A stretch of DNA of 34,566 bases from Psammoneis japonica. Taxonomy: Eukaryota. This document shows, one piece after another, positions 1 through 34,566 of the stretch (its first letter is position 1; each line of letters starts with the position of its first letter). The position numbers were made by a program, and so were the translations under genes. A model generated the notes under the pieces. The model made no database searches, was not told the DNA's origin, and was given only the letters and a program-made list of their open reading frames with translations. The stretch is taken from assembly GCA_008632985.1 (NCBI GenBank), contig QPGO01000053.1:434001-468566 (forward strand), given 5' to 3'.

Positions 1-94
1 CAGGAATGCGGGAGTCTGAGCACACAAAAAGGCCCATGTGCTGCATGTGCCTGGGTCAAACAGCCGATGTTGTTCCATGTGTTGCGTTGGGGCC

Positions 95-3460: not shown

Positions 3461-3949
3461 AAGGTGCTCTTGGCAATGCTCTCACCAAATGCAACATTCT
3501 CCCAAATGCAAGAGTGCTGCAGCAAGGCAAAGATGGGAAAGTGCAAGATGCAAGACATGCTGTGATCTGTGATCACAGTGAACAGTCTTTGTGACTGTCA
3601 TGAAACACTTTCTAAAAATTGCAAGAGAAGACTGCAAGTGAGGTCTCAAACCTTGTTTGGATTTCTGTCACGGAACCTTCTGTGGAGTGTTCTTTCTGAC
3701 ACCAAATGTTCCACAGAACTTTCTGCAAATGCTGCAGTCCTGGTCATTTGAATCTTCCAAATTTCCACTTGATGTTGCAAGCATGATGTGGAAGTTCACT
3801 TCAATCCCTGGTCCATGCATCCTGGCTGCATGAAACCACAACCTGGCTTTGTGCTGCTTCCAATTGACAATTGACAAAGCCGGTCATTTGACACCTGACT
3901 TGACCCAACCAGTCAAAGTGCTTTGATGACTGTGTCTGGGGGTTTCACA

Positions 3950-11130: not shown

Positions 11131-11149
11131 GTGGCTCTGGAAGACAAAT

Positions 11150-13034: not shown

Positions 13035-13144
13035 CGCTTCTTGATGGCACAGCTGCAATGAATTGGGCACATTGTTGTTGCACAAACAGTGCTGCACTGT
13101 GCATTTCTGGTGTGCCACATCAAAACTGCGCCCTTGGACAACTT

Positions 13145-13344
13145 GTGACTTGGCAGCAACTTCTTGACTGATGACAAGCCACTTTTCCAACACATTGACC
13201 TTTCCACTCTGTGTGGTTTTTGCCAACTCACATCTGGCTGTTGACAAACATGACATCCCATGCCGGCATTTCAATGAATGCATTTGTGTTTGGTGTCCAT
13301 TTCTTGGCCACCCTTGAGAACTTTGTGGAACTTCTCAGTGTTCT
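13145..13344 (-). pseudogene. trpD: Decayed 3' fragment of trpD
   Basis: CELAKTTQSGKVNVLEKWLVISQEVAAKS matches the intact C-terminus CELAKTTLQSGKATEVLKKWIAVSQEIAAKS. Nucleotide match to ~19082-19306. Confidence 0.93.
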
Positions 13345-13349
13345 TTGAA

Positions 13350-14345
13350 ATCAGCAGTCATCAGCAGAATCACAGCCCCATTTCCATGTTGTTGGCAATT
13401 CCACCAGCCCTCCATGCTGTGCAGTCAGGATCCTTTTCATGGTGTCATGCAACGTGCACATTGTTCAAAGTCAAAAACTTGGGGGACAGCAGCAACTTTC
13501 TTGCTGCACATCCACCAGCTGCCTTGTGTGCTGGGCTCCATCATGCGCACATTGCCTGACACTCCATGACAGAGGTCCACTCTCACCACACCCAAGAAGT
13601 CTGCTGAGTCCTTTCAAATGCCCAGCACTGCAGCAGCTGGCAAATGGATGAGTTGGCTCTTTGGGCACAACTGTGGGAGAGCAACACCACGCTCTTTTGC
13701 AGCTCTGCACCTGAGCTGGACATTGGGCCCATGATCTCTTCACAGAAAAGGGCAAGCTGATTGTTCCAGCTCCTCTGCCCAGCACCACACATCCATCACA
13801 GTGCAGGAACAGAGCTGAAGAACGTCATTGTCAATGTGCTTCTTGGCCATGATGCTGGCTGCTTTAGTCTGTTCATCAAAGAAGCAAACAAATGTGTGAC
13901 GCCATGCAAAGAACTCACAATGTCACAAAAATCTGAGACTCCAAGTGCTCTTGAGCAAAATCTTTGTCAAAGTTCCATGAGGGGACAGCGCAGGCCAGCC
14001 AGCCACAAAGTTGAGGACCTGCGGATGATGCTCTTTCTTCAAAAGAAATCCATGTGTTTGTCGCATGCCTCCACTCACTTTGAACCCAGATGCAAAGCTG
14101 AGCATTCTTTAGATGGTCAAAAGTGTGCTGCAGCAGCATGCCTTTTCTGCTTGTCCAACCTGTTTTGGCCTCACTTCTTTTGCTGCAAGCTGTGCTTGGC
14201 AGATGAAAGAAGAAGCAGGTGTCTCACAGACACCACAGCTTCTTGTGTTTCAGGCCTCAAACTTCACATTGCGCTGATCCCAAAATCTGGCAGCAGTGGA
14301 GTGTGCAACACTGGGCTTGAGTTGAGGCTCCTTTGTCTGAACATG
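13350..14345 (-). pseudogene. Possible decayed gene of unknown function
   Basis: Protein-like broken frames and a possible gtgagt...aacag intron near 13870-13920, lying next to the unmutated patch at 14400-14750. Confidence 0.3.
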
Positions 14346-14533
14346 ATGACTTTTGTGGCACACTGGAGGTGTGCGCAATGATTTTCTTTTCATTGGTCCC
14401 CTCTGCTCTAGCCTGCCCCTGGCTAGAGCACGCGCGCGTGAGAAGTTCCCGTGCGACGTCACCTCTGTGCAAGTGCAGCGGGGAGTGGCGCGGGGCGGGG
14501 GGAGATGTTGTTGGCGGGAAAAATCGTCGCGCC

Positions 14534-14648
14534 ATGCTACAAATTGCTGAACACTTGGCAAAAACGCGCGTAAAGCACCTTCGTTCGCCTCTGAAGGGAA
14601 AATTTCCATTCGTTGAACTGTTGTACCAGTCCACGTAGAATTCTACAG
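14534..14648. repeat. Inverted repeat arm 1, partner 16148-16268, probably promoter sequence
   Basis: atgctacaaattgct...ttggcaaaaacgcgcgtaaagc.ccttcgttcgcctctgaagggaaaattt is the reverse complement of 16148-16268 with few differences. Confidence 0.92.
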
Positions 14649-15183
14649 AAACTCCCTCCGACGCGTCACTCGCGTCTCTCGCGCCTCTGGCTGAACAACA
14701 CGAGACAATGCGCGAAACGCCGTCGGTAGTTTGCGACAATGGCGCCACCCTTCACCGCACTTTCTGTCACTGCGATCATGTGGCACCGTCAATTAGACCT
14801 GCATGCATGACAGGTGATGTGGTTTTGATCGAAGCAAGCACATTGGAGTTGAGGTCCAAGTCAAAAAAGCATCGTGGGTTTCCTCTTGCCAGTGTTGCAA
14901 GGGATGCGTTGTGCTGTCGTCGCGATTCGCCAATAGAAGCTCAATTCAATTACACCATTCCCGGGACAATCGGTTCATTGGATGTAGATGCAAAAAGTTG
15001 GCAGTTGACCAGTTGAAGATTCCTCTGGGAGGCTGCTTCGTGTGTGATTGTTTCACCACCCTTTTTGCCGGCGGCGGGTTGCGAATGATTGCTGAGTTGA
15101 ACACTGTTGATGAATGAATGACACGACTGCAGTCATTTTGAACTTGAACATGTAGAGGCAAGCATGGCATCTGCTAAAGAGAA

Positions 15184-15735
15184 TCAGAGAAATGGGGTGC
15201 AAAACCAGAAGACAAAAGTCGGATGAAAGCTGGATGCAAAAAAGTTGTCTTTGATGTTTCTCTTCGGATGCTGCCAACTTTCCCTCTCCAATGAAAGAAA
15301 ACTAGAGAAATCTTTAGTTAGCTCAATGTTGGCAGCAAAAAGTTGTGAGATGCAGTGCTGCAATGCCACAAGAGGACAATGTTCAATCGGTGTCAGGTGT
15401 CGAAAATGCAACGATGCTGCATTTTTAAACTCTGTCGATGACAAGCATTCTAGTTGATCCTTTGACAATGCCACCACAGTTCTCAGATCTATTGCCTTTA
15501 AAACTGTAAGACAGAAACTTCTGCTCTCTTCTTCGATTTGCGACGTGAAGAGTTGAGAGCGAGCCACTCGCTCTGCCGACAGAAAAAAGGTCATGTTTGC
15601 ACTCCCGTGCCATGCATTCAATTTCTTCAACAAAATTGAACTCTGCCTTCTGGCGCATCTATCTGTCATGCAACGTTTCGCTTGATGGACTGCATTCCCC
15701 GGTTCAAGATCCCAGTCATGAGAAAGACGAGTCAT
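15184..15735 (-). pseudogene. Unknown ORF, partly mutated, diverging from the 16462 gene
   Basis: Open frame of 183 aa from ATG 15735 with no Tyr, in DNA of intermediate TA depletion. Confidence 0.35.
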
Positions 15736-16147
15736 GCGATCAATTGTTTTTCTTGAGCGCGAGCCATTTGTGGCCCTTTCATCACCTCGAACACCCACAC
15801 TGCAACACCATGTAATCAACATTCAAACAGCTTTCACAAGCTTTGGTTGTTGAAAGACAACTTAAGTCTCAATGCTGCTGAACAAAAGCAAACACTGCGC
15901 GAAACGCCAATTGGGATGTCAAAATGGCGCAAACAGAGAACAAATGTGAGTGAAAGCGCCAGCGGAAACAAAGCAAACACCACAGCTCTATTTTATTACC
16001 GTTAAGAGCATACTAAAGCAAGGGAGAGTGGTTAAGAGCTGCAGCATCGATGATAATAGGTGCCGCCATTGTCGGATACATTCCCGTGCTTCACCGTGTT
16101 GTGTTGTCGGGGGGAGTTTGTGAGTCTCAAAGCGGCAAGACTTTGCG

Positions 16148-16268
16148 CTGTACATTTCTACAGGGCTCTGGTACAAAATCGCAACGAAGAGAAATTTTCC
16201 CTTCAGAGGCGAACGAAGGAGCTTTACGCGCGTTTTTGCCAAGCAAGTGTTTAAGCAATTTGTAGCAT
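16148..16268. repeat. Inverted repeat arm 2, about 190 bp upstream of the 16462 gene
   Basis: Reverse complement of 14534-14648. Confidence 0.92.
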
Positions 16269-16461
16269 TGAAAGCGGGATCGCGCGCTCTAGAAGAGTTC
16301 TAACCCTCTATCGCTTTTATCCAATTCAAATTCGTATAACCTTCAACCTTCCTTCATTCCTTCAGAAGATGGTGTACCTATGCTCTAACTCTCTAACGAA
16401 GGCAACTAAGAGCTTCCCGATTCCCGACATTCATACTATCTCTCGAGAGTAGTATAGAGCC

Positions 16462-17443
16462 ATGTCTTTTTCAAACAAACGATCGCGAGTATCATGTTTC
16501 GACAATTACCTACTGGTAGCTTTGAAGCTCGTCGCCGATAGCAAATTTCTCGACAGCAAGGATCTCGGTCGCTTCTTACTGCTCACCTCCAAACGACTCT
16601 CCATGGAGATGTTTGACAATCGTCAAGGAGTTTGGAAGTGTTTGTGTGCGAACGAATGGAATTGGGATAATACAGTGGAAGTTGCGCGGTTCTCAGGAAT
16701 GACGGCGGAAAAGACGTTCCGCAAGCTACTTGCGCCGACCCTGGAGGGACCGGAAAGCAGGCCATTCTCCTTGCGACCTCTCAAGTACCGTCCCGAGGAC
16801 TATCTCTTTGTTGTCCAACTGTTTCATCAACCGAATGATAATCAAACGTATTTTCCCGGTGCTGCTGCCGACACGCCATTCTTTCACAAGGCTATTCCGG
16901 GAAAGTACCCCCTTTCATCTTTCTTTAACAGTGGATGCTCCTCTGCTCTGGTATTCGAGAAACCTATTTGGAAGGAACAAATACCCAAAGAAGCGAGAAC
17001 TGGTAGGACGCATTTCAATTTTCTGGCAAAGGTTCAAATCATGCGAATTCCAGACGAAATGATTATTCGTAAACTCTGTTCCGTAAGCTGCACGGATACC
17101 TTTATTACATCCAAAGTTGATGCAAGTGGGACATGCCCTTTGCTCGGTAGTCACGGTATACACCGAGACCGAGGACACAAAAATAGGGAGTGCCTATGGC
17201 AAGCGATTGATTGCTGAGCATGTGCCGGGATGCGCCGGTTTTGATTTTCATGTCGCTCTTGGCTATCGCCCAGGGACGACTGCAGAAGAAGGTGACTCGT
17301 TTGAAGTGTTTGCTCTACAAATTTTTGCCAATGTAAAGTTTGGTGGCAACACGCAACCATACCGTCAATATCAACAAACAATGGAGGAAAAAATACCCTT
17401 TGCGCATTTCTTGGAAGAGCTTCTTGCATGGGATGATAGCTAG
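16462..17443 (+). CDS. Hypothetical protein, paralog of 19415-20395, with an apparent frameshift near 17085-17150; F-box-like N-terminus possible
   Basis: ORF 16462-17217 matches the paralog to MRIPD; ORF 17117-17443 matches its C-terminus (EKIPFAHFLEELLAW versus EKVSFAHVLEALPSW). Both share the agagccATGtct start context. Confidence 0.8.
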
Positions 17444-18144
17444 AGACTCGTTTCGAGATTTCGTAGAGAATAAGGAAGATTACAGTTGTTGGGCTTCTTT
17501 GTCTCCTCCTTTTGATACGAATCCAATGATGGCGGGGATTGCAGGTTGACTGGCCCAGTTAGATGCGGTGGCCAGTGCCTCCAAAATTTCATTTCTGCAG
17601 ATTGAAAATCACGGGAAGCTAAAGACAGCTTTATTTCAATCATACCTTATCGTCCAAACCGTTTGTGCAACTGGGTCTATCTCAATCTTTGTTCTCGTAG
17701 AAGTTAGGAAAACCAAACTCTAGCTAGAGGGAGAAGTTACGGTAGAGATAGCTACTCTCTCTCTAGCATGCAGCGCAGAGCGCGCGCAGAGTAGCTAAAG
17801 AGCCGCTGTACAAGTACCCATTTTAGATCGGAGTTGACGGGGTCGAACGAATTGCGCAAAATCCGGGTTATATTGCGTAGAAATCTATTCATACAATCCC
17901 TGTAGTCTACCGGCCGGGCGTCGTCACACATCAAACATCAACCACACATACGGTACAAAGATCTGAAGGCGAGATCAAGATAGCTTGAGGTGAAGTCAAA
18001 CACGCTTCAGCTAAGGGTGAAGCCTCTTCAGCAAAAAGCCAACAGCACATTGGAAGCTATTGCTTTTGATTCAATCATAAATTACTTCAAGTTATTCTTG
18101 CACTTTTTCGTGTTACACATTCAGAGAAAGAATCATATTGCATC

Positions 18145-19306
18145 ATGTCGACTGCCTCTCTCAAGCCCTACATTGAAGTCCTTATTGAAGGTGAACGTCA
18201 CTTGACATCGGAAGAGACCGAGGCTGCCTTTGGTGAGATTCTGAAAGGAGCAGACCCCATTCAGGTTGGATCTCTATTGACATTGTTGAGAGCCCGCAAT
18301 GAAACCCCTGACGAAATCGCCGGTATGGTTCGAGCCATGAACCAAGCATGTAATTCTGTGGACTTGGCGCCCAGGAAACTTTTGGATATTGTCGGAACCG
18401 GAGGTGATGGTGCGGATACAATCAATATATCAACCGCATCTGTGGTGTTGGCTGCTGCCTGTGGTTGCACCGTGGCCAAGGCTGGAAATCGATCCGTGAG
18501 TTCAGCGTGTGGTAGTGCCGACGTGTTGGAGAAGCTGGGTGTCAAGGTTGACCTGAGTCCTTCTCAAGTGGTGGAATGCGTCGAACAGTGCAACATTGCA
18601 TTCATGTTTGCGCCCATTAATCATCCCGCCATGCGTCATGTGGCTCCTGTCCGTAAAAAGCTAGGAGTCCGTACGTGTTTTAACATTTTGGGACCCATGA
18701 CAAATGCGGCGGGAGCTCAGCGAGCCGTGATTGGAGTCTTTCATCCGTATCTTGTGGATCTCATGGCTGGTGCTCTTCAACAGGTCGGGCGTGTAGATCA
18801 TGCAGTTGTCATTCATGGCGTTGGATTGGATGAAATTAGCCCCTTGGGACCTGCAACTTTTGTGGAAGTAAGTGGCGACTTAAACATCACGCAGGAAGGC
18901 GTTCTAGTTTCCTGTGATCTCGTGTTCTCACGGTTTCGCTACTCTGTGCGAATTATAGATAAAAAATGTTGCTGCTCCGGGAGAAAAAAAGGAGTACGCA
19001 GTTGAAAAGAAAACTTTTGATCCGTTGGACGTTGGTATTGAACGATGCACCCTTGCCGAGCTCAAAGGAGGAGATCCGGATGAGAACGCTGAGAAATTCC
19101 GCAAAGTTCTTGAGGTTGGCCAAGAAATGGACGCAAAACGTAATGCAATCGTTTTGAATGCCGGTGTGGGGTGCTACGTTTATGGCCTTTCAGATTCGAT
19201 TGCCGCCGGATGTGAATTGGCGAAAACCACGTTGCAGAGTGGAAAGGCGACCGAGGTGCTGAAAAAGTGGATTGCCGTCAGTCAAGAAATTGCTGCCAAG
19301 TCTTAA
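18145..19306 (+). CDS. trpD: Anthranilate phosphoribosyltransferase, 356 aa; exons 18145-18867 and 18959-19306
   Basis: DIVGTGGDG..TINIST, VAKAGNRSVSSACGSADVLE, FMFAPINHPAM, RTCFNILGP..N, GLDEISP, IVLNAG. A 91-bp phase-0 intron GTAAGT...TAG (18868-18958) joins the two ORFs in frame. Confidence 0.96.
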
Positions 19307-19414
19307 GTCATCTGAGAGTCCAGTGTTGATGTAGCGTATTAGCAACCCATAGCGTAGTGCCATTCGAATGACGACAACGTGTGCAACTTATTACTATCGT
19401 ACCATCAAGAAGTA

Positions 19415-20395
19415 CTATTCCCAAGACGGCAACGCTTCCAATACATGAGCGAAGGAAACTTTTTCTGACCCGGCTGGTTCTTTATGATCGCAAAAACTCC
19501 TGACTACTTCCTCATCATCTTTGTCCCAAACAGCGACACTAAGGCGAAATCCAGAGACTCCAATCGAATCTCCCGCTGTGCTCATAGTCGTCGAGCTGTA
19601 CTCGAGCCACGGCACAACAACTCTAAAACTTTTGCACCCGCAGTGATCCATAACAGATCTTCCGTAGTCATTTGCCATTCTGTTCAAGTCCTCTCTCCCG
19701 TGGAATTGCATCTCGGTCATATCAACTTTTCGAATCTTCTCAGGTAGCGCAGCGGGGTCCACGGATTCGCGGTGGCTGTGGAAACAGAAATCGCGGATTA
19801 TCTTCCGGTCTGGAATCCTCATAAGTTGGACCTCAGCAATCCACTTTAACTGAATCCTGGCCAGATTGGAAATTTGCTTCTTCCACGGTGGATCACTAAA
19901 TTGGAAATCAACACAGCCGTCCTCGAAGAAGCAAGGTACCAGAGCTCCAGGAATCGCGATGTGGTAGATCGGGCAATCAGATTCAGGAATCATCGCAACG
20001 TGACAGAACGGAGACTCCGTGATACGACTGACAGTCCTCCTTTTCCAATGAGAGAGCTTGACAACAAAAAGATAGTCTTCGGGACGGTACTTGAGAGGGC
20101 GTAAGGAGAACGGCACTGGCGAAGCTAACAGTTTGCGGAAAGTCTCTTCAGGAGTCATACCCGTGAACTGCACGACTTGAGTCACATTCTCCCACTTCCA
20201 TTCGTTTGCACATAGACATTTCCATAGTTCTTGGCGATCGTCAAAAACCCCTTTGGCAAAACGTTTGGAGGTGAGCAACAACAAGCGACCGAGATTTTTG
20301 CTGTCGAGAAACTTGCTATCTACGACGAGCTTCAAAGCTGCCTGCACGTCATTGTCGAAATATGACACTCGCGATCGCTTGTCTAAACAAGACAT
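19415..20395 (-). CDS. Hypothetical protein, 326 aa, intronless; F-box-like N-terminus possible
   Basis: Intact ORF of normal composition with two paralogs in the window. FLDSKNLGRLLLLTSKRF...ELWKCLC resembles the end of an F-box motif (inference). Confidence 0.88.
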   Translation of the reverse strand: MSCLDKRSRVSYFDNDVQAALKLVVDSKFLDSKNLGRLLLLTSKRFAKGVFDDRQELWKCLCANEWKWENVTQVVQFTGMTPEETFRKLLASPVPFSLRPLKYRPEDYLFVVKLSHWKRRTVSRITESPFCHVAMIPESDCPIYHIAIPGALVPCFFEDGCVDFQFSDPPWKKQISNLARIQLKWIAEVQLMRIPDRKIIRDFCFHSHRESVDPAALPEKIRKVDMTEMQFHGREDLNRMANDYGRSVMDHCGCKSFRVVVPWLEYSSTTMSTAGDSIGVSGFRLSVAVWDKDDEEVVRSFCDHKEPAGSEKVSFAHVLEALPSWE

Positions 20396-20983
20396 GGCTC
20401 TAAGCTACTTCTATTCTCTCTAGAGATCGAGTGGATAGCGGGAAGCTGTTTTAGTTTCTGTTAGGACAAGATCCTCTACGGTATGTACCGGTACTTCTAC
20501 TTCTATTGGTTAGAGAGGCGCATCAAACGAACGCTCGCGCGACGCAAAATGTGCGTACACTGCTCAAGTTGCAAGTTTGAAAGTGATAAGTGATCGACTC
20601 TCTACCTACTCTATATAGAGTAGAGAGATAGCACTGCATGTGTATTATATAGCATATCATATTCTACAAAACACTTCTTTCTCCTCTTGTGTTATAATAA
20701 GTGGAAACGAAAAAGGAAAGCCCGAGAGGCTTCTGTCATATCTGTCAGCCCCACACGTTTTGAAATTCTATTTCTCCCTCCAATCTCCAACAAGAGAGTC
20801 ATGAGTCATCTATCGATTTGAATTGCTCTTTTGTGTTTCTACTTTAAATCTGGTTACAAAATAATAGCGCCAGAGCAGAGAGACGTTATTTCCATCGAAT
20901 CTTTTTCGTCTCGCTGTCATACACAAATCTCACAATATGCATCACGCATCACACACAAACAAGAACGCGACCCGTCGTTTTCT

Positions 20984-21387
20984 CTATTTCCCCGTAATGT
21001 CTCTTCTAATTTCCTTGGCAAAAGCTGATAGAAACCCCGGAATTCCTCTCATGGGTGGTTTCGGTGGACCTGCAGCAGACGAAGAAGCAGCGGCTTGCTT
21101 TCCCAATTCATCCAGCGTGTTGTTGATGTGCTGAGTACCCTCCTTTTTCATGGTTTCAATGCTTGTATGCGTTCGTAGGGCAAACCGTTGAAAGGTGCGT
21201 GACTCGGCGAGGCCTTTAATGAGAACCTCCTGTAAAGGAATACACGAATAAAGCGTTGATAGAGTCAAACGTACTCCAAGAACGAAACGAGAGGCATCGA
21301 AACATGCCGTTTTCGAACGCGACGGCTTCTCATCGCGGTACTTACGTTGGCGAGGTAATTTGCAAGTCTCTGGACAAACTGATTCAT
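20984..21387 (-). CDS. Small two-exon protein, 95 aa; exons 21387-21346 and 21229-20984
   Basis: A 116-bp phase-0 intron GTAAGT...TTTACAG gives MNQFVQRLANYLANEVLIKGLAESRTFQRFALRTHTSIE...DITGK. This resembles small eukaryotic proteins with a Y.ANE..V.GLANS..FQRFA.RT motif, possibly Mrx7/NCBP2-AS2-like. Confidence 0.85.
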
Positions 21388-22239
21388 TTTTTGTTTTGAA
21401 AATACCTTCAAATACAAGAAGACAACTTCTTGACAAACTATGCGAAGACAGAGGTAGCAAAAATACGAAGTTAGTAGAGGCTGTCAACGAACGTCGTGGT
21501 TCTTGGTTCTTGGTTCTTGGATTGCTGGTTGCTGGTCGGTTGTCGGTTGGCAAAAGTCGATCGAAAATCTGCTCGTGACGTTGGCGCCACGTCTCTTTCC
21601 GTAGAATTCTACGAGAAGTCGTGGTATACCAACGTCATCACCTCTGATCGACAGCCGGACGGCTGACATACAGAAACACCAATAGGAATCATTCGGGTCC
21701 TTAGAGTCATCACGTAGAAATTGTGTAGGAGAGTACTAAAAATAATTATTATCAGTCTGTCCATCCGTCCGTATACGAATGTCAACTTCTCGGGAAATCA
21801 ATTGAAATGCTGTCTGATTGACGGCATTTTGATTCACATAGTGAAGGCCAATGCCGTCAACCAGATGGCATTTCAATTCAGTTCCCGAAAAGTTGTTAGC
21901 TCTAATCACTCTCTCGTATGACATTGTGCACATTTCTGCACGATTTTGTGTTTTTCCTCACGCAAAATGTCAATTGTGACCTACGCGACATTTTCGAATG
22001 ACTCCCATTGACATCATGCACGATGATGCCGGCCACTTCAACCACAACAGCAGAGCGGCATCACAATGCTCTCTGTGCACCATGTGATGTGGACAGTGGG
22101 TGGAGCAAAAAGGGATCAACTGCCAGCTGCTGCCGAGAATTCATTGGACCAATTTTGTTTTCCGAGTCCGGCGCAGCGCTCCCACCTGTTTTTTTTTTTG
22201 CTGAACATCCTTTTTTTTGCTGGCGGCAAGCCACATGTG

Positions 22240-24790
22240 TGCGAGTGCATCATTCGTGCACAATGCGATCACCGACAGCACTGTCGAGACCGTCACACGA
22301 TGACTGTCCGGGAGCGCAGGCCTTGGCAGATCCGATGCCAATGCAGCATCGCAGTGGCTGCTCTGCTGCGGAGAAGCCAGTGGATTGCTTCGAGAGGCGT
22401 CATGCATGTTCACAAACTGGCCAGCCAATGAATCGCCTCCATGGGCCGCCTGCCGTGCAGTCATGGCAAAGCGACTCATCGCGCTGGACAAAAACCCGGG
22501 AGTGCACCCGGTCGGCACAGGAGAGGTGTGCCAGCGAGCCACGGCCAAAGCCATTCTCCCAGTTGCTGGAGCAGAGGCCAAAGAGACTTGTGGAACGGAT
22601 CAGCCATGTGCAGGTCTTGAAGCAGGCATCAAAGGAGCAATTCACATGATGAATCTCCTCTGGGAACAGCGCAAGTTCGAGGATGATCATGGCTTCCTCT
22701 TCGTCGACGCTTCCAACGGTTTTAACGAGGAGAACAGAGCCCCAATGTCATGCAACGTTGGACACCTCTGGCCATCCGGCGCCAGGTTTACTTTCAATGG
22801 CTGCAAGCGTTGGAGTGTCCCAATTGTCCGCGGACACTTTGGCACTGCCTTCGCACTGTTCAGCAAGGAAGGTGTCGCGCAGGGTGACTCACTTGGCAAG
22901 GCAGCCCATGGATTGGGCCTTCTCCCACCAGTCCAAAAGCTGAGCGACATCTGTCAGGATGCTTTCACGCCATGGCACGCCAACGACTCAGCTGCAGCCG
23001 GGAAATTCAACATCCTTCAGGAATTTTTCTTGACTCTTTGAGTCGAAGGACCCAAGCATGGCTGCTGCCCTGCCGCTGACGACAAGAACATCCTGGCAGT
23101 CCCAGAACGCAACCTGGAACGTGCCAGGGCGCACTTTGGAGACCTCGGCTTCACTGTCTGCTCAGGCAGCTGCCACCTTGGAGGCTTCATCAGAGAGACG
23201 GACGCACACGACCGATGGCCAGCAGAGAAAGTCAAGTCATGGACCTCGGTCGTCCAAGGACTTGCAAACATCGCGATTCATCACCCGCAGACTGACTGTG
23301 CTGGTCTTCAAAAGTCCCTGCAACACCAGTGGCAACATGTCCAATGTGCAGCAAAGGACTGCGGCAAATCCTTTGCGGAAGTGGAGAGTGCGATCCAGTG
23401 CCAATTTCTTCCAGCACTGGTTGGCGAGACCTTGGCTGATGACGACCCGAGACTGGCCCCATCTGCCCTCCCAATCAAATTTGCAGGACTGTCCATCCCT
23501 CGTCCAACGGAGTCTGCATCCCAAAACTGTGAAGTGAGTGCTCTCACGTGCTCTCACGTGATGGACTCACTCCACGGCCACTCAGATTTCTCTTCAGCAG
23601 TCCACAAGGACACCGTCCATGAAGTGAAAGAAGAAGCAGCCAATGGGAAAGCCAAGATGCATGAGGAGAAACTCAAGACAATCTTCCGGACTCTGACCAA
23701 CCTCAAAGCCAGAGCCATCAAGTGCAGCACCAGTGCTGGAGCATGGCTGTTGGTGCACCCATCAATCACAAATGGCACGGAACTCTCTTGCCTGGAATTC
23801 CATGACGTGCTCCATCTGCGACATGGCTGCACCCCCCCCCCCCCCCCCAACCTCCCGGAGCACTGCGATGGATGTGCCTGCAAATTCTCCATCACCCATG
23901 CCCTGCAGTGCAAAAAGGGCAGCCCAGTCATCTCACGACATGACGATGTGCGCGATGACCTCTTGGTGACCTAATTGGAGCGGCCTTCAAGCCCTCCTGT
24001 GCACGCGACAAACCCCTCATTAACCCCATTGGTCACATCTCAGGAAGCCCAGGCTCCTCCAACAACTCCCAAGGCAACACAAACTCCAACATGTCCAAGG
24101 ATGGCAATCGCGGAGACCTTTTGTCCAAAGGATTCTGGGACAAGAGGACAGACACCGTCATGGATGTTCGCATTCCAGATGCGGACGCAAAGTCACACCC
24201 ATCCAAGACACCGGAAGAAGTTCTGGAACAACACAAACGAGAGAAAAAGCACAAGCATCTCAAGCCCTGCCTTGAACAACGCCGCCACTTTGCTCCCTTC
24301 ATCGCATCATGCGATGGGCTGTTTGGAAAAGAAGCCAAAGCAGTGCTGCACAGAATCTAAACCAGCTGAGAAATGGCAAAAACCACACTCAGAGGTGTGT
24401 GGCCATGTCAACGCGAGAATGAGTGTCACTTTGGTGCGGGCAACTCACCGTTGCCTCAGGGGATCACATGTCCCTTTGTCCCAGACCAGCTCCAGATGTC
24501 CTCAATGGGAGGATGGTGCTGGTCTGTCCCTTTGCAAACACTGGGTGACCCCACTTGGGCCAGACCACTCATGCGGATGGATGGCCAACCTGCTGCCCAC
24601 AGAGATCACCGATGCCACAACGAGAAGACAACAAAAACTTAGCAACACACTGATTGCGGCACCAGAATCGACTTGGATCTCATGCGCACAGCCCGTGAAA
24701 ACTGCGTGCAACAACCACTCCTCATTTGCATGACTGCATTAACTGCACAACATCCACCTGTCACATGACACTCTGCACAGAACAAAATGG
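22240..24790 (+). mobile_element. 5'-truncated non-LTR retrotransposon (CRE-like) with RT, Zn knuckle and restriction-like endonuclease
   Basis: LSGSAG, RLIALDKNPGVHPVGTGEV, DQPCAGLEAG, VDASNGFNE, EGVAQGDSL, WHAND at 22973-22987 (YADD), CDGC...HALQCKKG...SRHD, GDLLSKGFW...VMDVRIPDADAKS, HFAPFIASCDG. Coding ends at ~24544; frameshifted. Confidence 0.92.
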
Positions 24791-25259
24791 AGCATGCAGA
24801 ACTTGCAAGGAATGATGTGCCTTCAGACACCCTTGTTTTGCATTTCGTGTTTTTCACGACTTGTCAAAACGGAATGACAACGGCAACCGCGAACGCAATG
24901 TGCTCCATCAACAACCACAAACTCACCATGACACCAACATGTGTCGACAGCTTGTAATTCGAATCACACGCACATGCCTTGCTGTGCTTTGAAACTGATT
25001 GATCATGTCAAAAACTGCTGAAATGTCCAACCATTTGCCCATTGCTTTTCACCGCATGAGTCAACCATGAGCCCGTTACACTCTCAATGTGCCGCACATG
25101 AGTTCATGAGATGCGACACACTGTTGATTGTTGTGGCTCTTGAAGGCAATGATGTTGAGAAAACGGTGACCGTAGAGTTAGTCACCGTCGGCGAATTTGC
25201 ACTGAATCTGAGTCGTGCTTGTCGAGCTGGCATGGCTGCCGCTTTGCGATGATTCATGT

Positions 25260-26850
25260 GCCCACCATTCTTGTTGTCGATCCCGTCTGACCGTGGCCAC
25301 CAAAAAATTTTTCATGGCGCTAAATTTTTCTTTTTTTTGTGGAACGAATCCACCATGGCGGCATCTTGAGCAGTTCCAATGGGCCATTGCGGCCTCTCCA
25401 TGAACCAATGCGGGGCAACGCTGACACCTTCTCTTCCCACATTGAGTGGTGTGTGGCAAGAGAATGTCTCCAACGTGGAGATGCACCATTGATGCTCGAC
25501 AATGCTTTGATTCACCTCTGTCACGAGTCGGAATCTCTCGATCACATGGTGGCTTTTCAATGAGTTTGGCATCTTGCTTCTGTTCCCACCAACTTGCTCC
25601 CCCAAGTTGACTCCCATTGAGAAAATGTGGCTCACACCAGTGCAGCGACTCAAGAGCTGGGACCCTCACAGCCCGCATCCAGTGCAGGGTGCAGCAGCAC
25701 ATGCACATGCCAGTGCGGCAACCATGGACTTGTTCTTGCTTGATGATTTTGCCGTGGCGCACACTCTGCATGGCTGTCTTTGCTGGGCTGGACACCACAA
25801 CCACCAACAAAAGATTCCAAATTTTGACATTGACAACTGGATTGCAAGAAAATGTCCACCTGCTGGAGCACAAACCATCGCGTCATCTGGGTTGCAGCAG
25901 CAGCAACTGAAGCATTGTGCAGTCTTTAAAAAATGTGGCAACAGGGCTCCTGACAGAATGGCATGCTGTGCTGCTGATGTTGCTCCACATCAGGGAATCA
26001 AAGTGGCATTCATCCAGTGTCACACCATCTGCCAAAGACAATTCAACGTCGTTGGAAGCTGACTCGACATCCGAAAGAGAAAGAGTGTCGGGAGCAGGCA
26101 GCCACAAGACATTGACTGCCCACACTTCAAACATTTGTGGAATTCGATTCAGTCACACATGTGACAATTTGAACAAAAGTCTTGGGATTCGAAATCTTCC
26201 AAACACCAGTTGACCACCAATTGATGGGCAGAAAGCAAAGATCACTCTGACTCACAGTTGCAACATCAAATGCGTCCTGTCATAGAAAAGAGGCAGAATT
26301 GGGAAGGCTCCAGGTCACAAACAAATCCTGTGTAGCCAAAGAAGCCCGTGATTGCTTGGTTCTCAAAAGAATGGTCCGTTTTGAGTGCTGTTTCACTCTG
26401 CCACCAATTTCAGAGACAAAACTGGCAATTGGCATGGTCACGATTAACCTTTGCATCCCATCATTTTCAAGAAGACTGGGCACACACAGTTGTTCAACAT
26501 GTCAGAAGATGTTGTCAGACAGCCAGCAATGGGGGGAGAAACCTGTTTGCAGCACAAACAAACAACTTTTGTTGATTTCACGGGAAACAAACAATGGCTT
26601 GCACTTCTTTTTGACAATTCTCTCTCTTGGAACACACCTTGCCAGCGCTTTTGCATTGCAGCTTTGTCAATCATGCAAAGATGTTCATAAAACGCCCCTG
26701 GACGTCTCTGGGCATTGCCTGCTTGCTGAGAACACACACCGAGAAGGGATCTGATGGCTGATCACTTTTGAGTTCATTCCACAAAAAAAATTCTCGTGGT
26801 GAAAAATTTTTGGTGGCCACGGTCAGACGGGATTGACAACAGTGGTGGGG
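25260..26850 (+). mobile_element. Internally deleted Tc1/IS630-like DNA transposon bounded by ~90-bp inverted repeats
   Basis: Transposase C-terminal fragment at ~25400-25750: GNADTF, LMLDNALIH, LLFPPTCSPKLTPIEKMW (LPPYSPELNPIE.W). Inverted repeats at 25260-25347 and 26774-26850 share tcccgtctgaccgtggccaccaaaaa. Confidence 0.75.
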
Positions 26851-27829
26851 CCGGCAGCAAAAAAAAAAGGTGATTTTGCAGAAAAAAACAACCCAGCACA
26901 GCGCTCCATTGCATGATGGATGAGATGAGACAAAGGCCAGCTGCAACACAGCACCCAAACAGGAAAAAAACTGCTCTCCCGATGTCTCGTGTCATTGTTG
27001 GTTTCAGCATCACATTGCATCTCCCATTGCCAAAGGGTTGGAAATGCAAAAGAAAGTGATGTGCATGGGGGCAAAGCAACTGAAGATGACAGCCAACCCT
27101 CTCTGCCAAGCTCAGAGCCTGACCTGGCTTTTGAACAAGGCCCCAAGTGCAGAAATGATTGCCGGCAGTCATCGCAGCAAGGGCGAGAAGTGGCTGCACA
27201 AAGAGTTTGAGAAAAAGCAAAGAACTTGCATCTAAATGAAACAGCACCCAGTGCCAGCCATTTCAGCACTGTGGAAAAAATGAAGCTGTCCATCAGAGGC
27301 CCGTTTCCATGAATTGTCTTGTGGTTGGACCAGTGGACAATGTTGCTGATGTCATGTGTGAGTGTCATCACATGAATTTGTTCATGACAAATCATCACTG
27401 TTTAACATGACTTGACATGATCACACCCATTTGCCACAAATTGGTGTGATTGAAAATGAACAAATGTCCATCCAAACCAACAAAAGTCCAGGGATGTCAA
27501 CAGACAGCAGTCAATCCCAGCAAGTGGGGTGCAACTCAATGAGCTCACGACTCCAAAGAAGTTGCTTGACATGATTTCAATTGCCTTGTCGTTGCCGACT
27601 GTGTGATGACCAAATGCAGCATTGGGGCTTGTTTTTAATTTTTGCTGTCAAAGTCAATCGGTTGACCAGCATGTCAACGTGTGAGTGCAAGCAATTGCTG
27701 CCAAGTCAATCTTGTCCAGCCCCAAACTGCCACCAACTCCAGTTTGTAGATCTTGGCACAGCTGACTTGTTGGTCGTCTTCATCATCTGAGCCATCCTGT
27801 GCTTCTTCCGCCACCCGCTCATCTCGCTC

Positions 27830-29150
27830 AGTTGCAACATCTCTGCAGAGAGCTGCCCCCACTTGCCAAGGCGTCCTCTTGCAACACCTTGCTTGATCTC
27901 CTTGACCATGTCAACAAAGAACTTGTCAGCCCTTGGTGACCACCCTTTGCTCTTCTTCGGTGTCTTGCACTTCCTTGGTCTCCTGTGTTTCCATCTGTGT
28001 CTTTTGGCTTTGCCGCCGTGAAATGCTTGAGTGTCCTGACAACCTTTCTCCTCTTGCTGGATGCGTCTGCATTGTTTTGGATGTCAATGAGCACTTTCGC
28101 AGCATTGGTCAGAGCTGTGACTTGTGCTGCAGTCTTTGGCTTGTCTCTGATCTTCTTGACCATTGTGCCTCATTTTTGGCTCTTGTGCCGACAAACCTCC
28201 CTCCTCCAATGGCTCTTGTGAATCCTTCTGGAGCAGCACAAATGTGCTCTGGTCCTGGTCTTCCTTCTCCTTGGCTGTTGCAAGGTCTGGCATGATGTTC
28301 TTGCACAAGTTGTTGCTTCCCTCTTGGTCTGTCATTCCTCCATCATTGGCCAACTCCATGTCGTAATCCAACATCAAAGTCCCATCCTTGTTCCAGCTCT
28401 TGCAGTCGGCATGCCACGCATTGTGGTTGTTCTTGAGGAGCATGTGGGCAAACACCTCAGCACATGCTGTGCCCATCCTCTTGTCCTTGGCAATGCTCTC
28501 TTTCCAGCATGTCTCTCTGACAATTGGACGCAGCATGCAGTCACAGAACACTGTCAGCAAAGCCGGGTTTCCCAAGTGATCTTGGAATCTTTCCATGGAC
28601 GGCAAGATGCAATTGTTGTCATTGCAGCATGTGCACAAAGAGCTTCATTTGCAGCAGACAAAGCAAGTGACGATGCTGTCAGCAGTTGCAACGGCTGCTC
28701 TCATTGCACCCTCCGTTTGCACTCACTGCAGAACTTGTCCTGCTGTGCCTGGTGCGCATTCAACCTCTTGGCTGCCAGCCACTCCTGACATGTTTTTTTT
28801 TGTTTCAGTGCAAGCCACAGGTGGTGCAGGTGTGTTTTTTGCTCTGGCTTGGGCAAATCCTGCAGCATCCCATCCATCATCTTGGGGCTGCAATTCTGTT
28901 CATAATCCCTGCAGAGCATTCCTGTTTCTTCCATTTCCTTGTTGTTGAATGTGAGTGTGACACTGAGGAACAATGTTTCCTTGACATGTTCTCTCACCTT
29001 TGCTGTGTCCTGCATGACCTTGGCATGATCCACCATCCATTCAGTTGAGCTTGTTTGCTGCTCCACAACAACCATCGTCCTCCACTGCTTTCTGGAGATT
29101 GCCGAAGCACACTGAAGCAAGGTGAAGGATGCGGTTGAATCTTGCAAATG
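27830..29150 (-). pseudogene. Decayed unknown ORF, possibly a transposon accessory gene
   Basis: Successive minus-strand protein-like frames (HVKETLF..., AEVFAHMLLKNNHNAW...) with a Lys-rich end. Family not identified. Confidence 0.4.
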
Positions 29151-30070
29151 ATGTGCATGTGACGGTTGTCTCTTTGTCCCTTCTGCACATTTTTTTGCTC
29201 ACCTTGACAGGGCGTCTTCACCACATTTTTTTGCTTGGCTGGACATCTTCTTTTTGATTTAAATGAGTCCATCTTGCAATTCAAAACCTCTCATCTTTAA
29301 TGTCTGAACATGTTTTTTGCCATGATGTCTGATGTCTCTTTGCGGCCAACTCTCCAACAGCTGTTGCCACCCTGCCAATCAACTCCCATTCAAAAATCAA
29401 CCGAGTCTTCACTCAACAATTTGATTCAAAAATCAATCCAACATGTGCATGCCAACAAATGGTTGTGAACTGCCATCCAATTGTTTTGTTCTGCTGTTTC
29501 TGCCTTCCTTTTCCCATTGGCCCATTGGCTTGGCATGCCTTCTTGCCACCGTCACTGCCAATGCCGGCAAAATGCACCCCGTTCACAGCTCACGAGAACG
29601 CCAGCAACAGAGAGGTTTTGCTGGCACAAAAAATTGGCAATGACATTCCTGGCAACCAGCAACATGTCCGAGTGTGCATGCGTGCTCATGCCATCCCTGG
29701 TCAATCATTGCTGGTGTGGAAAAGTCATTGCATCCTCAAAAGTGCTTGCGGCGCCTGTTGCTGGCACAATTGGCATTGTCGGTTGGACTCCCCCCGCAAT
29801 TGTTGCTGGTTTTCCAGGTGACATGTTTCGCTGGTTTCACACATTCCCAGAACCATCCTTTGCTGGCAATGATGCCGATGACATCACCGGCCCAAAATGC
29901 CATTTCTGGTTCAACTGGCGACAATGCACAGGGTTGCACCATGGTCCGACCATTGCTGCGCATTTCCTTTTGCAGCCACGCAATGCGCCAAGACAACAGC
30001 ACAGCTGCAACAATTGCTGATGAGCTCCACAACATTGCATGCACATGCTGGTGCTCTTGTGGTGTTTGAT

Positions 30071-30470
30071 GGAAGTCCAAAGCAACAGGAACGATGGTGC
30101 CAGAGAGAAAATCCCAGAGCTTTTTGGCCCAGTGCAGAGCAAGCCGTGGTCCTTGAGAGCATTCAACCAACTCAAGCATGCACTTGTGACAAGTGGGGAC
30201 AATTTCATGGATCATTCTCATTCTGAATTGTGCCCTTGCAGTCTTCGCTGGGGGTTCAAAGCAACAGGAGCAGGCTCAGAGAGAAAGCCTCAGAGCTTTT
30301 TGGCGCCTGGTGCAGAGCAAGCTGCGGCCCTTGAGAGCACTCAAACAACTTGAGCATGCACTTGTGACAAGCAGGTGCAATCTTGTGGATCATTCTCATT
30401 CTGAATGGTGCCCTTGCGGTCTTTTTTGCTGGGGGTCCAAAGCATCAGAGGAGCGATTGCTCAGAGCTCT
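30071..30470 (+). repeat. ~180-bp tandem repeat, two copies plus a partial third
   Basis: t(c/t)caaagca recurs at 30076, 30255 and 30436. Shared blocks include gtgcagagcaagc, agcatgcacttgtgacaag and ggatcattctcattctgaat. Confidence 0.92.
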
Positions 30471-30499
30471 AAAACATCAGAGATTTTTGGACAAATTGC

Positions 30500-33400
30500 T
30501 CATCAGTTGTTTGTTTCTGCCACTGAGAACAACAAAGCAGCAAACCCCAGCACCAACTTCAACACAGATGACCCCCACATCTCCAGTGGCAGTGCCAAAC
30601 AGCTTCCTGGTGAGTTCACAGCAGACGAGGGCTGGATCGGAACTGGGTTGCCAATGTGGAAGAACCAGTGGAAACCAGTCTGGCAAGAAGCCATGATCGC
30701 CATCTTCACAACCTTGTAGATTCCAAGTGCATCTCAGAGAAGAAAGAGAACAATGACTCCCATTGACAACCACAAATCCTGGGTGCAAGAGGTGGGGAAC
30801 TCCAACCTCTCCATGACAATTGAACCAGCCTTGTCAAGCTCCTTTGTCTTGTGTGGGCAACGATTGTTGAGAAACATGTTTGCACAATGAAGAGAGCTCC
30901 TTGTGGGCATGGTTTGTGGCTGAGACATGCTTCAGCATCACGGTCTTCAACGGCCGTAACATCAGATGCTTGTCAAAATGTTTGCCGCATGTTGGTGGCT
31001 GTTGGCAAGGAACTTGACCAAAATGATGTTCCCCAGCTTGTCTGTGATGAACACACAGAGGGCTCCGGGGGTCTTGGTGCATCCATGCCAAATGCAGTTT
31101 TGATCATTGGGATGAATCTTGACACTGTCAGGCATGATCTTGGCTTGGACAGTGCCAAGCTCAATCCTCACTGCTTTGCAACCAAGCCCAGTGCGGAGCA
31201 CAGTCGCATGCATTTTGGTGCGTGCGTTGTTGTCACAGGGGCAAGGACTGCCAAAGCACTGCATTCTCTGGCTTGTCATGGCACCTCTGCATGGAATCAC
31301 AGACATCCGCATGGACTTGATCTGATTGCAAATGCCAACGTTTTTTTCTTTCTCGAAGATTCCCAAACCGACCTGTTGTTTCAGGATGATGTTGCCATTC
31401 TCAAGCACTTCGTGCAACCAACCACAGGCTCCAAAATCAATCCTGTCCCTTTTCTCTGGTCGCTTGGAACAACCATTGTAGTTTTTCTTGTTGTGCTTGT
31501 CATTCTTGTCACAAAGGGCATTGGAACAGTCATGTTCAAACACAAAATGGGCAATCACGCCTGCATCATTGGAGATTTCCGAAATGTTTCTGCCAAAGAC
31601 ATGAGGTAGAGAGCAAAATGATGGCATCATCCTGGATGCATTGAGCTCTTGGGGGCACCACCACAAGCTCTCGATCATGACTTGCGGCAGAAGGAAGTGG
31701 TTGTGTTGTCTCAAAGGAATGAAGATGATGGCACAGATCATCCAGCAGGCAACAGTCAGCTGGAGAATGGCGCAAGTTTAACTCGTGATTGGTGCATTGC
31801 TCATCATCCTTGTCATCGTCGTCTGGATCATAAAAAACAGAAACACAAGGAGCACATCTCAAGACATCTGCAGGTGACACAAAGCTGCAGCTGCAGCCAT
31901 GGGAGGACCAAACCTTGATTGACAAGGAAGTTGTGGAGCTTGCCGATGTGCTTGGCTTCAATGGAGACAATGCAGAAGCAACTCCTGAGGATGCACCAAC
32001 AGCACCAGTGTCCACTGCATTCTGAATGGGGTCATCATTGAGTGATGAATCACCATGCAGCAACAACTCTCCATCCAAAGATGACTCGGCTGTGTGGTCA
32101 ATGGAAGGTTGCAACTGGGAGGCTGGTGTGCTGATGGAGCAGTTGGTGGCTGGTGGGGCATGAGCCGTGGTGAAGGTCAGTGGAACAACAGGGTTCTGGT
32201 TGGTGTCTTTTTTGGATGCGGTGGGAGGAGGTGCCAGAGAACCAGCCAACACAGTGGAGGACTCCTTGTTCTTCTTCCTCCTCTTGGTGGAAGAGATGAA
32301 CTTTGCCTTGGCTTCCAGGAAAGGTGTGGATGCATGAGATCATGGACGCGTGATCGTGCAATTACCAGGTTGCAGAACTTGAAGCGATTCGTGTCCTTGC
32401 AGGAACGCTTGAAGGTGGAGTGGAGCTCACATTCAACCAAATCTTGGTGTTTTTGTGCCATGCCTTTTGCCAAGGCACGGGTGTTGATGCAAGCCTTGAC
32501 ACACTCCAGATGATGGGCGAGGATCTTCTTGGCAACCTTCCCATCCTTCAACTTCTGATTTGAGCCAATCAGGGTCAACACATTGTTGCAAAACAGCACA
32601 AACTGCTTCTTCTTTTTGCAGCCGGAAAAAAGGATGGTGGGCTGGTTTTGAAAATTGCTGAACTCTTCATTGGTGTGAGGCACAAAGCAACAGTCCTTCA
32701 TGGCAGCAGCGGTGCTCAGGCATTGCACAAAAAAGCCCAACTTGGATGAGAAGCTGGTGATCTGAAGGAAGCAAGGGTCATTGCCAAGTTGATCATGCAC
32801 TGTCATCTGCCACAAATCATCAATGATTGCATGAAGATTCTTGCCAAATCAGGAAAGATTGGAAAAGGTTTCAGCCAGCTTGTGGCACTCAAGAACACAC
32901 CTTCCATCTTTGCTGCAGAAACACAACCAGCCACGACTTTTGGCAGTTGCAACAAACAAAGGGCGAGGCAATGAGATCAGTGGAGGGAGTCCATTCAGAA
33001 TTTTCAAGAAAGTGCTGATGGTGGTGCTGTGTCTTGATGATTCTTTTAAATTGAGCCTTGGTCATGCAGGCACCACCAACACCATTGGTGTGCTTCAGCT
33101 TGGTTGTCAAGCACAGAGCCATTGACTCTGCCCAAAGAATCGTCGTCATTGTCATTTTTGTTGGGAAAAGAAAGATCACCAGCATGGCCATCATCGAGAT
33201 CTCTGGATGCAGATGGCATCCCAGCTTAAGAACTGCCTTGGCTGGTTGAGTCATTGCCATTGGATTCATTGTTGGAGCTGAGATTGACGTCAGCAGGGAT
33301 GCTTGGCACCACTGTGGAGGGAGAAAAACTTCAAGCAACAAGCCGCCATTGTCAGGAGACATGACAAAGCAGAGCGCAGCACCAGCTTCACATTTGGTGT

Positions 33401-33500
33401 CATTCTTGGATGAATCAGAGTGAGAAGAGAGATGCCCCTTTTGCTTGGGCATCACTTTGTGCTGGGACATGATCACAACGGTGGGAGAGGCAAACCGCCA
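30500..33500 (-). pseudogene. Long decayed coding remnant of unknown family
   Basis: Consecutive minus-strand frames 32889-33476, 32177-32815, 31566-32252 (Pro/Ser/Asp-rich linker) and 30962-31741. Confidence 0.35.
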
Positions 33501-34566
33501 TGGGCAATCGCAGCATGAACAGTGGTGATGAAATCCTGTGGACTGCTTGTTGTGCTGCTTTTGTGGTTCTGCAGCGATGATTCACCAAAAACACAGGGGG
33601 GAGTGGATCCACAGATCAGAGGCAGAAGGGACAAATGCCCATGCACAATTGCTGAGGTAAATGGCACAAATGAAACATTGTGATTTGCCAGTGATGCACC
33701 TGCAAAAAGCTGTCAAGGAATGCAAGAGACATTTCTTTGGTGCATCCACTTCTTCACCCTCTGTTGTCCTCATTGCCACCAGTGTCCACAACAAGTGGAG
33801 TGTGCCTGAAAGCATTGATGCACGCACTTCTTGTTTTTTCCTCAACTCGGTGTGCCAAAAGGCAATCTGCACTGTTTTCATTGCTTGCACGTGCCTGATC
33901 CCAAACATGGAGCACAAATCACTGGAAACATGCAAACCAACAAGCGCTGGTGTCACATTTGTCAGGAGGCCTAAGTTCTGGGGAATGTGGCCAGTTCAAG
34001 CCAGATGCGTGTGTGTTTCCTTCTCATGAGAAAAACAGAGAGACCACGCTGGTCAAGACAGTGACAACAGAGGGAACAAACAAAGTCCATGTTCATGTTT
34101 TATTTGGGAAGTTGGTCATGGAAATTAGAGCCCAGTCAAGATTTGGGAGTGTGGGCTGATGCACTTGACACCCTGTTGCACAGGGCTGTTTCTGATGGCG
34201 GTGGTCACACAAGCCTTCTGCAAATGGTGTGCACAAGCCTGCAGCCGCACTGTGGTGAAAGGCTGATGGACAAAGCAGTGTGGTCTGCTCCATCATGAGG
34301 GCTGTTGGTTTCAGCACAAAGGACCTGTCAGATGATCACAAGCATGGGGCAGCTTTCAAGAATTTTCCAGCATGCCAAACTGATTGATTTGTCTTGAAAA
34401 AAAGCACAAAATGGGACCAGAGGTTTTGAGCATTGGTTTTGCCTCTTGTGAATTGCTGGATGACAAGCAATGAGCAAGCTGGGCTTTTGGTTGTGCAGAG
34501 GACAGAGAAAAGGGGAATCCGAGACATGCAAAAAACTGGCCAACTTTTTTGTCAACATTCCCTTTT

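Follow-up and report, generated by a model that had tools for sequence, protein, structure and literature searches.

Near-complete loss of TpA from domains of a diatom nuclear contig, with a signature resembling Bigelowiella natans hypermutation

Can a decaying retroelement lose nearly all of its TpA dinucleotides by slow drift while much of its CpG is still in place, or does such a pattern point to an active process? The question is raised by a stretch of 34,566 nucleotides from Psammoneis japonica (assembly GCA_008632985.1, contig QPGO01000053.1, positions 434,001 to 468,566 of the forward strand), referred to here as the window and numbered from its first letter. It carries at 22233–24890, on the plus strand, a dead, 5'-truncated, R2-like retroelement of the type without long terminal repeats (non-LTR). 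A first-pass annotation, made from the letters alone, had noticed the scarcity of TA in this element and had proposed that TpA was erased actively and ahead of CpG decay. We have found that the loss is directional, specific for TpA, symmetrical between the strands and confined to domains, and that it acts on DNA that is not retro-copied. The explanation that we regard as probable is a TpA-specific process at the DNA level, confined to these domains, with a signature as in the hypermutation described in Bigelowiella natans.

TpA loss and CpG decay in the retroelement

Between 22240 and 24790 (2551 nt) there are exactly seven TA, located at 22723, 22789, 23972, 24021, 24358, 24640 and 24740, versus 126.4 predicted from the base composition, i.e., an observed/expected ratio (O/E) of 0.06. 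The first-pass annotation had counted by eye fewer than about ten and had placed them correctly to within 1 nt. Taking the TA O/E of 0.6 that is typical of the relatives of the element, about 76 TA would be expected, and the Poisson probability of seven or fewer is 4e-24. CG was rightly described as plentiful (112, O/E 0.59), though it is moderately depleted. A scan of metagenome contigs provided 45 related loci, of which 20 have open reading frames (ORFs) of at least 800 aa; in all 45 the TA O/E lay between 0.30 and 0.95 and the CG O/E was about 0.9. These values, together with the tyrosines that the relatives retain, contradict the idea of a family consensus that is itself free of TA.

The polarity of the loss can be read at the level of codons. 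We took as conserved the columns with at least 60% agreement among the 20 relatives with ORFs of at least 800 aa (n = 494), the family reference being formed by related loci of other organisms and metagenomes, not by this genome's own copies. The window copy retains the consensus residue in 331 of the 494 columns and in none of the 13 conserved tyrosine columns (Fisher 4e-7). Where the proteins of the relatives carry Tyr it has His in eight columns (codon CAY, where Y is a pyrimidine) and Cys in five (TGY). The WYADDAGAGG of the relatives reads WHANDSAAAG, and the replacement of YADD by HAND, like the general disappearance of motif tyrosines, had thus been perceived correctly. A second replacement that had been pointed out, of YSEVCGY by HSEVCGH, stands in part: in the PYS.V motif CAC indeed takes the place of the conserved Tyr codon, while the last residue (F in L005, Y in the majority consensus of alignment A2) lies outside the conserved tyrosine set.

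Arginine codons behave differently. At the 39 conserved Arg columns the window copy has 15 CGN codons, in agreement with the many that were said to survive, together with 6 AGR, 12 TGN or CAN, which are products of CpG decay (one of the 12 is a TGA stop), and 6 others. TAY was kept at 0 of 13 columns versus 15 of 27 for CGN (Fisher P = 5e-4), and the ratio of the rates (exposures) of TA loss and CpG decay in the retroelement is at least 4.5. TpA loss is therefore saturated here and CpG decay about half done, so that the proposed order of the two holds. Neither is the CG of the element mostly new, made from TA by double hits: 15 CGN stand at conserved Arg columns, and the duplicated segment D (see below) has ten CG, seven of them ancestral.

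The retroelement is recognised by protein similarity over 22253–24540, in one frame apart from about 23965–24360; in-frame stop codons lie at 22301, 23039 and 23972. In tblastn comparisons with full-length relatives the window copy covers residues ~446–1202 of ~1205, with 44% identity, and is therefore 5'-truncated. It is bounded by joints in contigs of a public run (22232 to 24891 and 22241 to 24850) whose short sides measure 22 and 31 nt, so that the ends are approximate; no direct repeats flanking it and no LTRs were found. Related proteins from diatoms (Attheya) and marine metagenomes have ~50% identity, the closest public proteins being ~50% (15 matches) or 43% identical (3167 matches at E <= 1e-3). 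No Pfam family was found for six ORFs of the region, nor for four full-length relatives at E <= 0.01; RVT_1 matches 6 of 12 full-length relatives at E <= 1 (best E 2.8e-7), and a profile of 12 full-length relatives matches the R2 proteins 9nl3, 9dou and 9nl2 over the reverse transcriptase (RT), with E values of 4e-5 to 5e-4. The patterns C..C...H...C and RHN / GDL / D.R.TD are conserved in alignment A2 of the relatives and, judged by eye, may represent a CCHC motif and an R2-type restriction-like endonuclease; no profile or structure match covers this C-terminal part of the relatives. By these similarities the copy appears to be a non-LTR element whose RT is R2-like, for which the term used originally, LINE (long interspersed nuclear element), is a fair label. 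Its coding region includes a run of about 20 C at ~23826–23848, where only a few residues are encoded in the relatives; nine of these bases are missing from one of the public contigs.

Depleted domains and the direction of change

The deficit first seen in the LINE is certainly there and is not confined to it. Calculated per kb, the left depleted domain (1–14000) has a TA O/E of 0.00–0.09, a CG O/E of 0.06–0.34 and a CA/TG O/E of 1.6–2.1. The right domain (22011–34566) has the same ranges of TA and CA/TG, with a CG O/E of 0.52–0.71 in 22011–26000 and 0.24–0.45 in 26001–34566. Together the two domains have 76 TA in 26,556 nt, about 77% of the window, and their 52 subwindows of 500 bp average a TA O/E of 0.043 +/- 0.034 and a CA/TG O/E of about 1.9. 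Between them is located a gene island of normal composition (16001–21982; TA O/E 0.5–1.0, CG and CA/TG both ~1.0), preceded by a transition zone of partial TA loss at 14251–16000 (TA O/E 0.11–0.44, CG 0.46–1.48, CA/TG intermediate). The left boundary of the island is thus graded across this zone, while the right one is abrupt, the final TA being at 21982 and the next one at 22723. Non-coding stretches of the island are also TA-rich (O/E 1.02 in 20501–20750 and 0.72 in 21501–21750). No depletion is seen for AA, AT or TT (O/E 0.9–1.2), and the GC content is alike in depleted DNA (0.45–0.51) and island (0.44–0.48). The thresholds published for B. natans were passed by 103 of 137 500-bp subwindows, in two contiguous blocks, and by just 3 of 518 taken from the 45 related element loci. 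In depleted DNA the (CA+TG)/TA ratio is 78, which implies, assuming equilibrium there, that the per-site transition at TpA outpaces its reverse by a factor of about 39.

The depleted domains, which belong to a diatom nuclear genome, are poor in genes and consist of repeats and pseudogenes. Most of this DNA is unrecognisable: among 107 ORFs of at least 100 aa in the depleted and transition DNA, a DUF1254-family match at 10922–11593 is alone above the Pfam cut-off, and no viral genes were seen in the depleted DNA. Owing to the near absence of TAA and TAG, depleted DNA has long stop-free frames on both strands (130 ORFs of at least 100 aa in the 34.6 kb, nearly all without a family match).

The direction of change is shown by duplicated host DNA. 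The segment 19083–20142 of the island, which includes the 3' end of a TrpD-like gene beside a host-type ORF and hence is not retroelement, has a degenerate inverted duplicate in the left depleted domain (12354–13344, plus strand, 73% identity over 1067 nt), which we call D. The 35 aligned TA of the island copy appear in D as 16 TG and 14 CA, with 4 other states and only one TA kept, so that 30 of the 34 changed TA are transitions to TG or CA. CG has also been eroded (of 54 in the island copy 7 are kept, 22 are CA and 20 TG), and D has 10 CG, of which 7 align with island CG and 1 with island TA. TG and CA, on the other hand, are conserved at 79% and 84%, with 14 CA/TG discordances, and the background mismatch outside the four dinucleotides is 48/503. 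As a control we used a duplicate with both copies inside the island (16448–16827 and 20048–20409). Its background mismatch is higher than that of the D pair (27/172, 15.7%), yet 5 TA were kept and 9 changed in either direction, 17 of 24 CG were kept and there were no CA/TG discordances. A single member of the D pair has been mutated, and the third copy, at 16448–16827, is untouched too. The two pairs together indicate that the process is directional, acts on DNA and is set by location, not by duplication or retro-copying.

Both strands are equally affected, as the 16 TG versus 14 CA in D and the 8 CAY versus 5 TGY in the retroelement indicate, and no clustering of the TG and CA outcomes was found along D (runs z 0.4 for TA and -1.24 for CG). 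The depleted DNA of non-retroelement nature includes, besides D, the DUF1254 match, which is not transposable element DNA and is TA-free as well, and a low-depth flank at 22028–22141. Since non-retroelement DNA is affected, and both strands equally so, the process acts on DNA.

The TA that survive have a marked context. TTAA accounts for 25 of the 76 survivors in depleted DNA versus 11 of 263 TA in the island (Fisher 1.5e-10), and the RTAY classes (ATAT, ATAC/GTAT and GTAC; R is a purine) for 1 of 76, when 29% would be expected. RTAY is already reduced to 1 of 28 TA in the transition zone (29% expected, P 9e-4), and each of the seven TA remaining in the retroelement is preceded by T or followed by A (P 6e-4). 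Thus, the RTAY sites are the first to disappear and TTAA resists best, which we read as a preference for the flanks of the site taken as a whole; an additive flank model (per-strand 3' neighbour) fits survival with an R2 of 0.91. The boundary of the domain, the polarised changes in D, the control duplicate of the island and the context of the survivors all bear out the original suggestion of an active process as opposed to slow drift.

CpG decay is found in the same places. Over the 52 subwindows of the depleted domains the CG O/E is 0.28 +/- 0.18 (range 0.04–0.80), compared to ~1 in the island, and its rank correlation with the TA O/E is weak (rho 0.27, P 0.053). TpA loss and CpG decay are co-localised yet kinetically distinct, TpA loss being the faster. 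The two had been described as uncoupled, which is right for the kinetics and wrong for the location, as they occupy the same domains. From what is generally known, CpG decay would stem from cytosine methylation. The decay of CpG to TpG or CpA is the slower of the two changes and differs between segments with their age, so that the retroelement is saturated for TA while ~55–65% of its CpG remains.

Competing explanations and known systems

In the explanation that we favour, nearly every TpA of the depleted domains would have become CpA or TpG by mutation at the DNA level, the change being an A-to-G transition on either strand of the palindromic TA step, and the retroelement at ~22233–24890 would have been mutated inside the depleted domain along with its flanks. 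The process may well be enzymatic, targeted and similar to a genome defence, a diatom counterpart of the TpA hypermutation of B. natans, to judge from the likeness between the two. The enzyme could be either a deaminase that acts on adenine in DNA, of the kind suggested for B. natans, or a thymine-modifying activity.

Several observations weigh against this reading. Many copies of the retroelement are present in the organism (1217 contig pieces at >=80% likeness), and the window copy differs from the other copies at 528 places (443 transitions and 85 transversions). Among the best-supported 40 of these 528, most other copies have TA at just 2 places; 8 are losses of CpG found in the window copy alone, 9 are CG kept where most copies have TG or CA, 1 is a CA versus TG discordance and 20 have other contexts. 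Part of the TA loss of the retroelement could thus pre-date the window copy, even if, the flanks being equally depleted, in-place mutation is sufficient for it. The context preference has its own difficulties: the spectrum taken as ancestral derives from 5.8 kb of island DNA only, the surplus of TTAA could partly consist of new TA generated by C>T changes at TCA and TGA, and a per-strand context model was discarded after its favoured outcome was seen in just 13 of 21 cases, with a log-likelihood of -20.5 versus -20.1 for the null. One agent behind both CpG decay and TA loss is also conceivable, given that the domains are shared.

The multi-copy nature of the retroelement suggests a different history, in which its state was inherited from a source copy that was already TA-poor, either through ADAR-like RNA editing before reverse transcription or from a mutated master copy. 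To judge from the two TA places among the best 40 of 528 differences, the TA-less state may be common to most copies, and ADAR favours a 5' U. However, the flanks and ~24 kb of unrelated DNA, including D and the DUF1254 relic, are equally TA-free; both strands are affected, in the retroelement and in D; the 45 relatives have normal TA; and a copy with HAND for YADD cannot serve as an autonomous master. The scarcity of shared TA places has, besides, another reading, since copies that had each lost TA independently would have CA in some cases and TG in others, and such rows would rank below the best 40 of 528. We consider inheritance quite unlikely, and its variant of A-to-I editing at the RNA level fixed by reverse transcription was rejected on account of the affected non-retroelement DNA and the lack of strand bias.

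It might also be argued that nothing is targeted, and that a genome-wide, context-dependent bias or GC-biased gene conversion has acted everywhere, the island appearing normal only through selection. The few recognisable genes of the depleted DNA, where the DUF1254 match stands alone among 107 ORFs, would agree with this. On the contrary, the non-coding stretches of the island are TA-rich, its duplicate pair keeps TA at a background divergence of 15.7%, and the right boundary (21982 to 22723) is abrupt. Mutation accumulation in P. tricornutum, in the portion of the published account available to us, has CG as the most mutable site and a GC>AT bias, with TpA unmentioned in that portion. GC-biased gene conversion in particular was discarded: it would produce a general enrichment in changes from weak to strong bases, and AA, AT and TT have O/E of 0.9–1.2 in DNA of similar GC content. 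An untargeted bias is in our view unlikely. A single burst triggered by duplication and guided by homology, as in repeat-induced point mutation (RIP) but with TpA as the target, would fit the presence of multi-copy elements and of a duplicated segment among the mutated DNA, and also the saturation of TA in a retroelement with modest CpG decay. Nevertheless, only one member of the duplicate pair was mutated and the third copy at 16448–16827 escaped, the very high-copy repeat at 21783–22010 keeps its TA, the low-depth DNA at 22028–22141 is TA-free and the graded zone at 14251–16000 shows partial states, so that a burst of this kind seems very unlikely.

The TpA-specific process that we favour has one described counterpart. 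A preprint on B. natans (Mettrop et al., 2026; bioRxiv 10.64898/2026.01.13.699255) is the only description of this signature that we found; in the literature we found no report of TpA to CpA or TpG hypermutation in a diatom or stramenopile, the other matches being fungal RIP. According to the available part of that preprint, 231 of 302 de novo mutations in mutation-accumulation lines fell in two integrated viral regions, those mutations consisted nearly exclusively of A>G and T>C changes, which without exception lay on TpA, and the rate there was ~6e-7 per site per generation, ~1000x the background. The same part describes 124 clusters of windows poor in TpA and rich in CpA and TpG, with RT and DDE domains enriched in the TpA-poor genes, and proposes an ADAT2-like deaminase; its Discussion refers to the preference of ADAR for a 5' U beside the edited A, and diatoms and flanking context go unmentioned in it. 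The similarities are the restriction to TpA>TpG and TpA>CpA, on both strands and with regional confinement, and the clustering of windows with TpA depletion and CpA/TpG enrichment, tied to sequences of RT or transposase type. The differences are that the host here is a diatom (a stramenopile) and there a chlorarachniophyte (a rhizarian); that the TA O/E of ~0.04 is near saturation, compared to the rho of 0.45 found in the available text for its NCLDV (nucleocytoplasmic large DNA virus) region; that the DNA affected here comprises a retroelement together with pseudogenes and anonymous repeats, no viral insertion being recognisable; that CpG decay co-localises here, with an RTAY-first, TTAA-last bias not reported in that text; and that a de novo rate was obtained there, while here only the footprint is seen.

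Other systems share part of the pattern. Fungal RIP turns CpA into TpA, enriching TA. It has in common with the present case the dinucleotide-specific transitions in repeats, the intact nearby genes, the compositional domains and the destruction of transposon ORFs. The polarity is opposite, since here TA is destroyed and CpA/TpG accumulate (TA O/E 0.04, CA/TG ~1.9); stop codons are removed here and created there; and duplication alone is insufficient here, as the similar copies at 19083–20142 and 16448–16827 are unmutated. Methylation-driven CpG decay is present in the same domains and has the same products, TpG and CpA, but cannot remove TpA, and is slower and variable between segments, in all of which TA has reached its floor. 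ADAR and APOBEC, which in animals edit the nucleic acids of retroelements or viruses, are likewise cases of hypermutation by base deamination as a defence; they act on RNA or single-stranded cDNA, with strand bias and clustering, whereas here both strands are changed without clustering and in DNA that was not retro-copied.

A wider reading, which is possible but which we hold with considerable doubt, is that diatoms own a targeted DNA-editing defence, a mirror image of fungal RIP that recognises TpA best in RTAY. As its signature is at work today in a rhizarian alga, the system would be either ancient in SAR (stramenopiles, alveolates and Rhizaria) or have spread within it. The enzyme would act in silenced, CpG-methylated domains until transposons, viral insertions and trapped pseudogenes have lost their Tyr codons and their TAA and TAG. 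To our knowledge, RIP has long been the sole system mutating repeats at the DNA level, and has been regarded as specific to fungi. If true, this would be a second, independent eukaryotic immunity of the "mutate the invader" kind, directed at adenine or thymine instead of cytosine. With a saturated footprint in a diatom, TpA hypermutation would be widespread among ecologically dominant algae. Its targets would extend to retrotransposons and pseudogenes besides viral insertions, there would be a spatial link to CpG-decayed, presumably methylated, chromatin, and the preference for RTAY before TTAA would be usable for finding the enzyme. TpA-specific hypermutation was first reported in 2026 and in one chlorarachniophyte; the diatom footprint described here is new and saturated. 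The finding is best filed as an addition to TpA hypermutation, to which it contributes a diatom host, saturation, co-localised CpG decay and the preference for RTAY over TTAA. In practical terms, gene finders would over-call genes in DNA poor in TAA and TAG, and transposons located in such DNA escape profile searches, as with the RT of the window, which has no Pfam match.

Genes and repeats of the window

The island contains a TrpD-like gene (anthranilate phosphoribosyltransferase; 18145–19303, plus strand, with at least two coding blocks), identified by Pfam PF00591/PF02885 with an E of 1e-66. Its protein is 85–90% identical to the corresponding enzymes of diatoms such as Cylindrotheca, Pseudo-nitzschia and Nitzschia, and the organism is therefore a diatom. 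A dinoflagellate origin, considered on account of the 5-hydroxymethyluracil found at TpA in that group, was dropped in view of this placement, and a search for the spliced-leader motif had given no match. Next to it, on the minus strand, is a host ORF of ~329 aa (19418–20404) without a Pfam match, and a paralogue of this ORF is located at 16453–17214 on the plus strand, inverted with respect to it. The family thus has three members, an inverted pair inside the island and a degraded copy in the depleted domain at 12354–13344 (plus strand). An F-box-like label for the ORF at 19418–20404 was discarded, the Protein Atlas scores of 0.92–0.94, with low recognition, being too weak for naming the gene.

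In the left depleted domain, the DUF1254-family match on the plus strand at 10922–11593 (Pfam PF06863, E 2.8e-5, 24.8 bits versus a cut-off of 22.2) is probably a pseudogene relic. Beside it there is a 48-nt tandem duplication, at 11192–11287. Within the transition zone, inverted repeats of 115–121 nt with 84% identity (14534–14648 and 16148–16268) bracket a unit of 1.7 kb. The arms keep their TA (5 of 6 aligned TA are conserved) and the interior is partly TA-depleted; the unit may be a DNA transposon in mid-mutation.

The very high-copy repeat at 21783–22010, in which TA is retained, contains a palindrome (21783–21895) and its end coincides with the right boundary of the island. The summed contig depth over it is ~8,000–10,700, versus ~48 in the next bin, and loose contig ends are found at 22005 and 22010. 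This repeat may be a young element resembling a MITE (miniature inverted-repeat transposable element), so far unmutated. The TA-free, low-depth flank at 22028–22141 belongs already to the right depleted domain. Farther along the same domain, at 30051–30490, there is a tandem repeat of two to three units of ~179 nt with ~78% identity. Its units differ by five CA/TG discordances, as would be expected if each unit had been mutated independently.

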